From: Eledone cirrhosa
Taxonomy: Eukaryota
DNA length: 64,000 nt
Direction of reading: 5' to 3'
Assembly (NCBI GenBank): GCA_964016885.1
Contig: OZ024743.1
Span: forward strand, 27,590,001 to 27,654,000
The notes below the pieces were generated by a model. That model had not been told where the DNA came from. It worked only from the letters and a program-made list of their open reading frames with translations, and made no database searches. How positions within the stretch are numbered: the first letter of the stretch is position 1; each line of letters opens with the position of its first letter. Shown piece after piece: positions 24,448 through 38,178 of this stretch. Position numbers and translations under genes: made by a program.

Positions 24448-25487
24448 GCATGTATCTGTGTGTTTCTAAATATATTAATAACTCCCTCTGGTCGAGCAAT
24501 CTTTGAAGTGTGGGGACAACTGGAAAGCTTCCATTACTCGTACTTCTCGCCTTCTTCACTACCTCTTCTACGGCCTCGATATGAATACCCCCTCCGCCTC
24601 CGTGGTATTTTCTTCGTGGTTATAAGAGGCTTAGCTCTGTTTCTCGACCGTTATATCGCGTGACTATCTCCCCCTCCGCCTTTTGGGATTCTTTCTCACG
24701 TCGTGTAGACGCGTTCTTGAGACTAGTAAAATGAGGTATCCTCTTGATAAGTTGGCAGACCTCGCAAGGACTCTATATCTTTGATATATTGTTTTTGTTT
24801 ATGCCACGAAACTACGTAGTCGAGGAATTTAGGAGCAGTTTAGGTATGATACATTTTATTACCAATTATATCTAAATGTTTCTTCTCTCTTCATAATGTA
24901 TTTTTAACTCTGATACTGGTTCAGTCTGGTTCAAACTGAATTGGTCTGTCCCAGTCATTCATTGAGCAACATCGGTGAAGTTGGCACCCTTAACTCGCAG
25001 TTGGGTGCGGATGCATTCATGTATATATGTGTGTGTCCGCATGTATCTGTGTGTTTCTAAATATATTAATAACTCCCTCTGGTCGAGCAATCTTTGAAGT
25101 GTGGGGACAACTGGAAAGCTTCCATTACTCGTACTTCTCGCCTTCTTCACTACCTCTTCTACGGCCTCGATATGAATACCCCCTCCGCCTCCGTGGTATT
25201 TTCTTCGTGGTTATAAGAGGCTTAGCTCTGTTTCTCGACCGTTATATCGCGTGACTATCTCCCCCTCCGCCTTTTGGGATTCTTTCTCACGTCGTGTAGA
25301 CGCGTTCTTGAGACTAGTAAAATGAGGTATCCTCTTGATAAGTTGGCAGACCTCGCAAGGACTCTATATCTTTGATATATTGTTTTTGTTTATGCCACGA
25401 AACTACGTAGTCGAGGAATTTAGGAGCAGTTTAGGTATGATACATTTTATTACCAATTATATCTAAATGTTTCTTCTCTCTTCATAA
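24448..25487 (+). repeat. 591-bp-period direct repeat (~1.75 units) of the family C HHR element
   Basis: 24448-24897 is repeated at 25039-25488. TA-flanked. Confidence 0.9.
24739..24826 (+). ncRNA. Hammerhead ribozyme with U3-A8 core (family C; second copy 25330-25417)
   Basis: UCCUC UUGAUAA GUuGGC...GCCAC GAAA CUACGUAG UC|GAGGA. Palindromic ACUACGUAGU stem III, GUC site. Confidence 0.78.
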
Positions 25488-25950
25488 TATGTATATATAT
25501 ATATATATATATATATATATATATATATATATATATATATATATATATATATATATATATATATATATTGAAATATGTCGATTTCATGCAAAGTGATAGT
25601 TATACATATGTTGAACAATGATAACTTCGAATATATATTAATATATGCAAATATATAATATGTATATAACATGCATGAATAATGCTGGGATTTGGGGATT
25701 TTATAGAAGTACTCCAGGTTTAACACCAAGAAATATGTTTTTAATGGAGCATTAGAAAGAGACAGCAACAATACCATCACCAGCGATTACCATAATTTTA
25801 TAAAAAAATTTTAGGAAGTACAGAAACCTGTGCTTATAAAATGACGTGAAACAGATAAAAATAATTTCTTTTAGATATTTGGAAGATTTGCAATGGTGTC
25901 TTTCTGAATGTTAGACACATATAGCATACATATTCATTCATTCAGCCCCT

Positions 25951-26275
25951 TCATTCTCTGTATAGCATAGTCCATTGGCAAGTCACTGCTATCGTACACG
26001 TTCCTGGACTGCTCTCGCCACTCCAGTTGGCCTCCAATGTTCTTAAATCAACCTCAGTGTCACGTACCCAGCTGCCGCGCGTCCGTTCTTTCCTCCCCTT
26101 ACCCTGCAGAATCCAGGTCAGGGCTCGGCGTGTGGTGTTGGATACTAGTTTCCTGGAAGTATATCCAATCCAGCTCCACTTCCTCCGAAGAATCTGCGTT
26201 GCTACTGTTTCCTGTCCTGCTCGCTTCCACAGATCCTCGTTAGAGATCTTCTCCGGCCACTTGTGCTGAAGAATG
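25951..26275 (-). mobile_element. RTE-clade LINE 3' fragment
   Basis: ILQHKWPEKISNEDLWKRAGQETVATQILRRKWSWIG...ALTW...GKGRKERTRGSW, typical of the RTE ORF C-terminus. Confidence 0.8.
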
Positions 26276-26915
26276 TGAGTGTGTGTGTGTGTGTGTGTGT
26301 GTGTGTGTATGTGTGTGTGTGTGTGTGTGTGTGTGTGTGTGTGTGTGTGTGTGTGTGTGTGTGTGTGTGTGTGTGTGTGTGTGTGTGTGTGTGTGTGTGT
26401 GTGTTCTCTGTCCTCTTCTGTCATTTTCTCACTTACTTTCTATGATTGTTGTGCCTCTCTATATAGGGCGTACATACAAACAAACAATTCCTTTCTCTAA
26501 CTTTTCCCTCTGTGCATAGTTTCCCTTCTTGGTTAAGATGTTGGACTTTCTTTCTATATCATCTTCTCCGTTGCAACACATTGGTTGTAAATAGTCGTAA
26601 ACCCAGTCGTCCTGTCTTGTGTCTATTTTTTATCATCCCATATGCCCAGAGCTAGTGGTATCGACATAAAAAAACGAAACCACGATGACCCCCAGTAGTC
26701 GCTGATGAGGAGGGTCTGTTTTGTGTTTAGTCCATTTTCTTTTGTCCGCTGTTTATGTTTCATTTGTATGATTTTAGCCATGTAGGTCACATTATTAAAT
26801 CTCTCTCTCTCTCTCTATCACCCCCCCCCACACACACACACACTCTCTCTCTCTCTCTCTCTCCCTCTCTCTCTCTCTCTCTCTCTCTCTCTCTATATAT
26901 ATATATATATATATG

Positions 26916-35936: not shown

Positions 35937-36899
35937 ATATATATATATATATGTATCATCAACCCACCCATCCCCTCAATATATCTTATTTCTCATTCTT
36001 AGTTCTGATGAAGGACTAGCATCCGAAACGTTTGGACCTTCTTCCCGCTATATCAAGCGTTAACCTAATATATCCCTTCCATATACTGTACCGATTGTGT
36101 TGTTATTTCTGTTTATCTTTTACATACATACATATATATATATATATATATATATATATATATATATATATATATATATATATAATGCACCCTATAATAT
36201 GTGTAAATGGGGAATAGTACAGTATATAATACATAGTTGATATATCAATTTATATCGATATTGATGAAGTAGATTACGCAGCATTTACATTTTTGTTTAT
36301 ATTTTGTTACATTTCTAGAAAGAAAATCAAATCTATTAACCCTTCGCTTCTAGGTATTACTTTAGCTACAGTTCATTATTTTAGGCTAGAACGAGTATAG
36401 TTTCTGCTATAGTATAAAGACACTGCAAATGGCATATCATTTATGTGACATTTCCAAGAAAGATAGTTTAATGAGACAATTTGTGAGATTTTTGTTCGTG
36501 GTATTTATTGTTAAACCACCTAGTGACGTCTCAACACCGACATTGTTGTATATGTGATAAAACAACCAAATAAATTCTTAAATAGCCAAGTTATACTGAA
36601 TGTAAAAGTGCCATAAACTACAGAGACAATATATAACTTATCAGTGATTAAAGAGCTTGCATTGTCGATTTTAAATACTCATAAAGAAATTACTTCAAGA
36701 AATATGAGCTCTGTCGCAAGTCATTTAGCTTTCTCTACGAATATATGGATTCAGAGAATAGCTTCCTTAAATTACATTAGCTACACAGTACTATAGTGCA
36801 CCACAGAAGACTTAAATGAACTCTTAAAAATACATGATTATATAACAATAACATTTGTATCGAAATTTCGATATCTATTCTTCCCACACAGGTTTATCG

Positions 36900-37272
36900 A
36901 TAATTGTTTCTACTTTTGGCACAAGGCCAGCAATTATCCTTTGCATTACTGGTACTTTATTTTATCGACCCCGTAAGGAGTTAACCTCAGCGGGATTTGA
37001 ACTCAGATTATAAACGGCCGTAACTCTATGCTACAAAGCATGGCGTCCGACCCTCTACCGATACTGCCAATCCACCGCCCCTCAAATAATTGTTTCTATT
37101 TTAGGCACAAGGCCAGCAATTAACCAGTACATTACTGGTACTTTATTTTATCGACCCCGTAAGGATGAAAGGCAAAGTTAACCTTGGCGGGATTTGAACT
37201 CAGATCATAAAGGGACATAACTCTATGCTTCAAAGCATGGTGTTCGACTCTCTACCGATACTGCCAATCACC
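36900..37272 (-). mobile_element. SINE family 1 tandem pair
   Basis: Two head-to-tail copies, 36900-37080 and 37087-37272. Confidence 0.85.
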
Positions 37273-38140
37273 CTCAAATAATGTGTGGCAATTGCATTGT
37301 AAAATCACCAAAATCATCTGTTCTGTAATGGATTTGAAGCCCTGACCTATGTGTTGATAGCCTAATGCATCAAATACTCTTCTGTTCTAGTAATAAACCG
37401 CATCGAGAACACGAAATCGTTAAAATACTGACAACGGTGCTGTTTAAATGAATGACACGTAAACAGAACGGGGAACTTTACAAGTCTGCTGTTAGCTAAT
37501 TTTGCAATGTTATAGACGTGACGTACACTTTTCAAGATACATAAAACTGGGTTGACTGAACAAAAAATCGATATCGACAGAAATTCAAAAATGTAAATAA
37601 AGAAACAAAATCACACACAACCAAATAATAATAATAAAAATAAAACACAAATAAAAAAAAAAATCCTTTAGCTTCACTTTATAACTAGGAGTATAATAGT
37701 TGCGGTTTGATCTCATTTACTGAAATTCTAACAAAAATGTTCCTACGAGAGCTAGTTCTAAGATTAATCAAATATTGAGTTAGAGGATGTCTTCAGAAGC
37801 TGAAATAGATTCGTTCTTCATAGGATTAGTCAGATATATGTGAAATACAATAATGAAGGAATTACAGAAAGGTATGTATGTACATGCGTATGTATATGTG
37901 TATGCATATTTATATCTGTATGCTTGTGTGTGTGTGTATATATATATATATATATATATATGAATACATATATATATATATACGTATATATATATATTTA
38001 TATATATATAAATATATGAATACACACACACATATATATATATATATATATATATATATATATATATAAAGAAAAAGAGATGAAATCGAAAATCCAACTG
38101 GAGTCTTATTTTTTTAAAAAATATATATATTTATTTGGTT

Positions 38141-38178
38141 CCTTTACCGGTTTCGCAGTTCTTCTGCTTTTCAAAAGG
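38141..38178 (-). ncRNA. Minimal hammerhead ribozyme with U3-A8 core (family J), 38 nt
   Basis: CCUU UUGAAAA GCAG aagaa CUGC GAAA CCGG UA|AAGG. Palindromic ACCGGU, followed by AAUAAA and TA repeat. Confidence 0.78.

Follow-up and report, generated by a model that had tools for sequence, protein, structure and literature searches.

The 64,000-nt stretch of the Eledone cirrhosa genome analyzed here (contig OZ024743.1, positions 27,590,001 to 27,654,000; hereafter the window) belongs to a genome of ~3.0 Gb that is rich in microsatellites. It contains six motifs of the hammerhead ribozyme type, assigned to the families C (with the diverged subfamily C'), F and J, in which the C3-G8 Watson-Crick pair of the active core (PMC3884650) is replaced by U3-A8. 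We hold it probable, at about 75%, that these are type I hammerhead sequences in which U3-A8 has become fixed in three high-copy retroelement families, and that they likely cut their own RNA during copying. The motifs had been described from the sequence alone (the original prediction), with coordinates given as the low-coordinate ends of helix I. The computed spans confirmed all six positions and cores, with the family F motif starting at 34074 instead of 34075. The features are collected in Table 1.

Table 1. Hammerhead motifs with a U3-A8 core and the elements that carry or adjoin them, in window coordinates.
Feature	Position	Strand	Remarks
Family C hammerhead	24739..24826	+	U3 24744, A8 24749, G12 24808, C17 24821
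Second family C hammerhead	25330..25417	+	591 nt 3' of the first, same strand; possible dimer partner
Family C' hammerhead	27111..27206	-	U3 27199, A8 27194, C17 27118
Family C' hammerhead	27968..28069	+	U3 27975, A8 27980, C17 28062; domain II with a short duplication
Family F hammerhead	34074..34169	-	U3 34161, A8 34156, A17 34082; U10.1-U11.1; 9-bp helix III
Family J minimal hammerhead	38141..38178	-	U3 38174, A8 38169, A17 38145; 4-bp helix II; 6-nt palindromic helix III
Family C insertion	24448..25488	+	1.76 head-to-tail copies of a 591-nt unit lacking an open reading frame (ORF), inside (TA)n; copies identical over 450 nt
Family C' insertion	26953..28146		two inverted arms; identity to the C unit 73-75%
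Family F insertion	33944..34677	-	one 537-nt ORF-less unit and 88 nt of the next (33944-34568); inverted piece 34564-34677
Family J fragment	38069..38313 (ends approximate)	-	5'-truncated 3' end of a Neptune-type Penelope-like element (PLE); 89% identical to a full-length copy (L302)
Separate PLE	20746..24289	+	reverse transcriptase (RT) and GIY-YIG frame ending at 23772; own C3-G8 core at 24045; family C lies in its (TA)n tail

All six motifs have the type I topology, with their ends in helix I, and all contain N3-U4-G5-A6-N7-N8-A9, G12-A13-A14, A15.1-U16.1 and an NUH cleavage triplet (GUC, AUA or GUA); the GAAA and NUH site predicted for every motif were thus found in six of six. The core reads UUGAUAA in the four C/C' motifs, UUGACAA in F and UUGAAAA in J, so that positions 3 and 8 are Watson-Crick complementary throughout. 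The motif at 24739 has a domain II of 57 nt and a palindromic helix III of 10 nt. A G10.1-C11.1 pair is present in C/C' and J; F has U-U at this place. The stems I-III had been called intact, which holds as far as the helices are present, but in family C helix II is bulged close to its base, and helix I of J is only 4 bp long. In F, the claim is further reduced by the U10.1-U11.1 mismatch, a helix II of 3-5 bp and a conserved competing hairpin. It is the least regular of the motifs, with helices I and III supported and helix II weak.

The heptamer UUGANAA alone is not enriched in the window (75 observed against 72.25 expected). With positions 3 and 8 unconstrained, the complete type I descriptor gave eight matches, of which five were U3-A8 and three C3-G8, while 20 shuffled windows gave on average 0.3 matches each, and 0.05 with U3-A8. 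With a bulge in helix II permitted, the window yielded 14 matches (five U3-A8 and nine C3-G8) and no other combination at positions 3 and 8. The strictest, first version of the descriptor was the only one to detect the copy with U3 at 27199; it missed F and returned one C3-A8 match at 58807 that was lost in later versions. A scan of the window with Rfam gave 142 matches at E<=1, none of them to a hammerhead family. This agrees with the expectation that standard descriptors would overlook the U3-A8 motifs, but Rfam missed the C3-G8 hammerhead motifs of the window equally.

The most complete picture was obtained for family J. A J pattern with positions 3, 7 and 8 free had 12,494 matches in the genome (reversed-pattern control, 0). 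A8 was absent from 52 of them and U3 from 112, which is below 1% at either position, and G8 occurred in none of 100 listed matches with a base other than U at position 3. Among copies that had not been picked for core variants, 59 of 60 were U3-A8 and the remaining one was gapped at position 3; old copies (72-82% identity) are also mostly U3-A8. On their upstream side, longer copies run on into a GIY-YIG frame. Of 21,316 candidates from a protein search, 150 were scored, and many of these have an open frame of 775 amino acids, which codes for an RT (RVT_1) together with a GIY-YIG domain at the C-terminus, both above the Pfam cut-offs. Taken jointly, five loci (L301-L305) show the U3-A8 motif upstream and ~1 kb downstream of this frame. 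The motif was present in 22 of 30 frame-bearing J loci, always as U3-A8; the other eight show none within the flank. The translation contains a Cys linker, CxxxxCxxC, and a CCHH in the endonuclease. Both match the description of Neptune elements (PMC8557442), the clade being assigned from motifs only. The J motif is the hammerhead in the terminal repeats of an intact and young PLE of the Neptune type.

Full-length J copies (plus strand, L305:5853-7079 and L303:1015-2241) also carry an upstream frame of 409 amino acids without a Pfam match. It overlaps the 775-amino-acid frame by ~88 nt, and a frameshift or an intron could join the two. J fragments frequently lie in a (TA)n tail that belongs to a different PLE family (L083/L112, L085/L111, L097 and L108), probably owing to a shared target preference. 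A C3-G8 sister of J was sought with a loose pattern, whose 103 matches (control, 14) came mostly from another family. Two of 18 fetched loci (L336 and L337) hold old copies of the J lineage with C3-G8. They were read as decayed outliers, because other copies of the same old subfamily, including the partner in L337, are U3-A8.

The C/C' pattern had 7,061 matches in the genome (reversed-pattern control, 0). G8 occurred in one of 100 matches listed, as U3-G8, and a C3-G8 motif with the helix III of C was found nowhere in the assembly. As predicted, U3-A8 is conserved between C and C', both arms of the latter reading U3-A8. The core was unchanged at all 121 positions in 11 diverged C copies, against 783 changed among 3,981 positions outside the motif; the copies are related, and six of them were selected by a pattern in which part of the core was fixed. 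One helix I pair has changed from U-A to C-G in a subfamily, and 96.4% of the helix cells of the alignment are paired, against 33-58% when it is slid. In contig sets that resemble DNA, no core variant reached >=5% in C.

The C insertions are arranged head-to-tail, with up to ~4.7 units; their 5' ends vary and inversions occur. In 56 of 62 alignments (overlapping loci unmerged), the 3' end is fixed at N17+80/81 and joined to (TA)n. Comparison of 71 units from 24 insertions showed that units differ by 0.31% within an insertion (78 pairs) and by 1.25% between insertions (2,304 pairs), and units of one insertion often have private changes in common. This pattern is consistent with copying round one circular template and also with a tandem master or later homogenization. 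None of the sequencing runs listed was recorded as RNA. A closed 620-nt C contig (depth ~8) appeared in two runs of unknown kind; it was not used as evidence for a circle, because a collapsed tandem DNA repeat looks alike.

For family F, a pattern with positions 3, 7 and 8 free had 1,608 matches in the genome (reversed-pattern control, 0). By hand count of 100 listed matches, A8 was present in 100 and U3 in 98, while position 7 was distributed as 70 A, 15 C, 12 U and 3 G; the matches are related and, as with every F copy, the patterns that selected them fixed part of the core. A drifting position 7 beside an invariant A8 supports selection on the 3-8 pair and is the best evidence of the kind obtained here, because the search left positions 3, 7 and 8 open. 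The F units of 537-570 nt occur in tandem and inverted arrangements with two preferred 3' ends, and their subfamilies are 65-97% alike.

U3-A8 is therefore the genome-wide norm in C/C', F and J alike, and not a decayed departure from a CUGANGA consensus. A fourth, older family (L256-L270 and L174:9627) was U3-A8 in 16 of 16 pattern matches, and summed over the four families there are 21,179 pattern matches. To place these in context, the descriptor was run on 60 stretches of the genome (599,800 bases; 50 spread over nine contigs and 10 adjoining the window). It returned 44 matches, against 1.2 in shuffles: 32 C3-G8, of which 16 came from one array, 11 U3-A8, of which three came from one doubtful minisatellite, and one low-complexity A3-A8.

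The double change had been taken as a sign of selection for catalysis. What stands is that the complementarity of positions 3 and 8 is maintained from family to family while position 7 drifts; within a family, however, the pair is simply inherited. The three families had also been called independent. The C, F and J units indeed have no mutual similarity beyond short low-complexity matches, but a separate origin of U3-A8 is supported only for J versus the fourth family. The latter probably belongs to a PLE related to the frame in L113; it has a 3' terminal motif in common with a C3-G8 PLE, to which its protein (one locus) is 47-52% identical. For the J protein, identity to each of the two C3-G8 PLE proteins used in the comparison is 21-27%. 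As the fourth family is close to a C3-G8 PLE and J is distant, these pairwise comparisons would imply that PLE lineages have changed state two times or more, with C and F not placeable among them. They speak against the rival view of a single origin, in which C, F and J would all have inherited U3-A8 from one old PLE lineage and the families would not count as independent evidence. Retention of U3-A8 in J copies down to 72-82% identity, in C subfamilies to ~73% and in F to ~65% fits such a single origin. We regard it as possible, though clearly the less probable view, and it is the strongest of the alternatives.

The proposed mechanism would run as follows. In a tandem C or J transcript, two motifs would pair through the palindromic helix III, for which self-duplex energies of -12.9 kcal/mol (C) and -8.3 kcal/mol (J) were calculated, while F may fold alone through its long helix III. 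U3-A8 would take the place of the C3-G8 tertiary pair; it has been reported active in vitro (PMC3088659). Cleavage 3' of N17 would free a unit-length RNA to be ligated into a circle. The circular folds of C and F have z values of -4.8 and -2.7. A PLE reverse transcriptase, acting in cis for J and in trans for C and F, would then copy the circle, with priming, in C, ~80 nt downstream of the cut, and by running round the circle could produce copies of more than unit length. Minimal hammerheads of PLEs have been described as needing dimers and cleaving slowly, and circles as possible templates for such longer copies (PMC4209133, PMC6765202). The tertiary contact between loops 1 and 2 of fast hammerheads is absent from minimal PLE motifs as described. 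Here, cleavage is probably slow, and most so in J and F, because their A17 can pair with U3. Only the C motifs at 24739 and 25330 form a same-strand tandem among the six, and the other four are probably inert remnants.

A further alternative is that C and F are terminal repeats of unsampled autonomous PLEs and not stand-alone elements similar to retrozymes. J itself seemed ORF-less at most short loci until longer copies were read, and only a small share of the C and F copies was examined. On the other side, no linked PLE frame was found in six 10-kb C loci or in 20 F loci of 5-6.5 kb, both small samples; PLE frames nearby have their own C3-G8 motif, and arrays that repeat a short unit up to ~4.7 times leave no room for a gene. 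We consider this alternative unlikely.

Several results weigh against the view that the motifs cut their own RNA. Relative to the best fold, constraining the monomer to the hammerhead fold costs 1.2 kcal/mol in C, 3.1 in C', 5.3 in F and 7.1 in J, compared with 4.2 kcal/mol for a C3-G8 motif of the window, and the hairpin of F that ties up G12-A13 is kept across subfamilies. Covariation in C is weak: one of 28 pairs changes on both sides, a level attained by 237 of 500 shuffles. Copy number within a family is not evidence of selection, because the pair is inherited, and since the pair does not vary within a family, a covariation scan restricted to a single one would be uninformative. The tandem insertions could stem from an uncleaved tandem master, and PLE minimal hammerheads cleaved poorly in vitro (PMC4209133). 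Pairing of U3 with A17 in J and F would slow cleavage, by analogy with the inhibitory C3-G17 pair (PMC3884650).

The competing folds in J and F, the U3-A17 pairing and the low activity of PLE minimal hammerheads, together with insertion ends that lie 3' of N17 and not at N17, would favor the idea that the motifs are kept for their shape or for recognition by the retrotransposition machinery, with little or no cleavage and U3-A8 conserved as structure. This is harder to reconcile with drift in position 7 and domain II beside a retained catalytic core, NUH triplet and 3-8 complementarity, or with the reported activity of U3-A8 in vitro; we think it improbable, somewhat more so than the terminal-repeat explanation. 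Chance matches in AT-rich repeats, to which the heptamer count and the silence of Rfam might point, are refuted by the shuffled windows, by the reversed-pattern controls at zero genome-wide and by the position of the J motif where PLE hammerheads are expected.

The PLE that precedes the family C insertion has an RT with YVDD together with a GIY-YIG domain at the C-terminus, and with a 1,150-nt inverted 5' arm it spans 19596-24289 of the window. Its family is young, because a 100% identical piece was found at another locus (L240). The frame at 20746-23772 was ruled out as the parent of family C, and similar frames beside J copies as that of J: these are separate elements, because they have C3-G8 motifs of their own and terminate in (TA)n ahead of C or J. 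In PLE frames beside C or J (loci partly overlapping), 20 of 22 motif-bearing rows are C3-G8, with one U3-G8 and one A3-G8. PLE frames near F copies (L113, L232, L235 and L240) likewise proved to be separate elements and not F's own.

Further type I hammerhead families with a C3-G8 core and a palindromic helix III lie in the window at 3683, 28324 (minus strand), 31043, 35613 (minus), 35750, 38563 (minus), 39223, 40266 (minus) and 55228; near 36006 there is a relative of the last. A 467-bp tandem and inverted array that carries 16 C3-G8 hammerheads and resembles a retrozyme lies directly to the left of the window (L172/L173). Two other loci (L170/L174) hold, 3' of a PLE frame, two copies of a motif that resembles a hammerhead but deviates in its core, where two G follow U7. 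The minus strand at 40681-44517 of the window contains a broken element of the long interspersed nuclear element type, with AP-endonuclease, RT and zf-RVT pieces across several frames, and 56305-58154 is taken up by a 310-bp tandem repeat in about six copies, of which five are identical; the descriptor gave no hammerhead there.

U3-A8 in such elements is already known, and the present families are fresh examples, not a novel ribozyme or element type. A literature search for U3-A8 hammerheads gave one match, in which Cervera and De la Pena (2014) report ~1,300 U3-A8 motifs beside ~2,000 standard hammerheads in Schistosoma PLEs (PMC4209133). Together with the natural U3-A8 variants of Perreault et al. 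(2011; PMC3088659), this makes the statement that natural U3-A8 is uncommon an overstatement. Among the papers listed in a search on octopuses and hammerhead ribozymes, none dealt with such motifs in its title or in the opening of its abstract, which does not show their absence from print.

Like the Schistosoma Cercyon PLE hammerheads (PMC4209133), the motifs described here are type I with U3-A8, a short helix I and a palindromic helix III predicted to need dimers; they exist in many truncated and inverted copies, and that of J lies in repeats flanking an RT and GIY-YIG frame. They differ in host, in the youth and homogeneity of J (~12,500 matches, whereas the Schistosoma motifs are heterogeneous), in the 4-bp helix II of J without an extra base after A9, and in the 57-67-nt domain II and 10-nt palindrome of C. 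The variants of PMC3088659 show the same U3-A8 covariation and U10.1-U11.1 mismatch, but they are rare there, while here they are the state of whole high-copy families. With Neptune PLEs (Craig et al., 2021; PMC8557442), J shares the RT, the CxxxxCxxC linker, the C-terminal GIY-YIG with CCHH, a hammerhead in terminal repeats, and tandem and inverted copies in (TA)n; the second, overlapping upstream frame sets it apart.

ORF-less tandem elements with type I hammerheads are known as retrozymes of the non-LTR type (LTR, long terminal repeat; Cervera and De la Pena, 2020; PMC7229834) and have been described as PLE derivatives (Li et al., 2026; bioRxiv 10.64898/2026.07.22.740005). C and F resemble those of metazoans in having tandem units that lack an ORF and carry a single type I hammerhead apiece, a GC content under 45% (42% in C and 32% in F), a strongly paired circular fold and PLE-like insertions. 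F also shares the U-U at the base of helix II with the axolotl HHR_Amex2 (PMC7229834). They differ in their U3-A8 cores and in unit length (591 nt in C and ~540-570 nt in F, against the usual 150-450 bp). We call them retrozyme-like and not members, because their length lies outside this range.

What is particular here is the scale, the youth, the large C and F units and the possible U3-A17 pairing. A bolder extension, which we consider doubtful, is that the swap arose several times and is the working state of >20,000 motifs in an intact PLE and in oversized ORF-less circles, with U3-A17 in J and F as a brake that spares tandem RNA for copying. If this were true, the U3-A8 swap would be tuned rate control and not a neutral substitution. 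The families add large, young and clean members to a class of variant hammerheads that is overlooked by standard descriptors and Rfam. The intact element with U3-A8 in both repeats and the 591-nt tandem unit are test cases for the role of PLE hammerheads in vivo.

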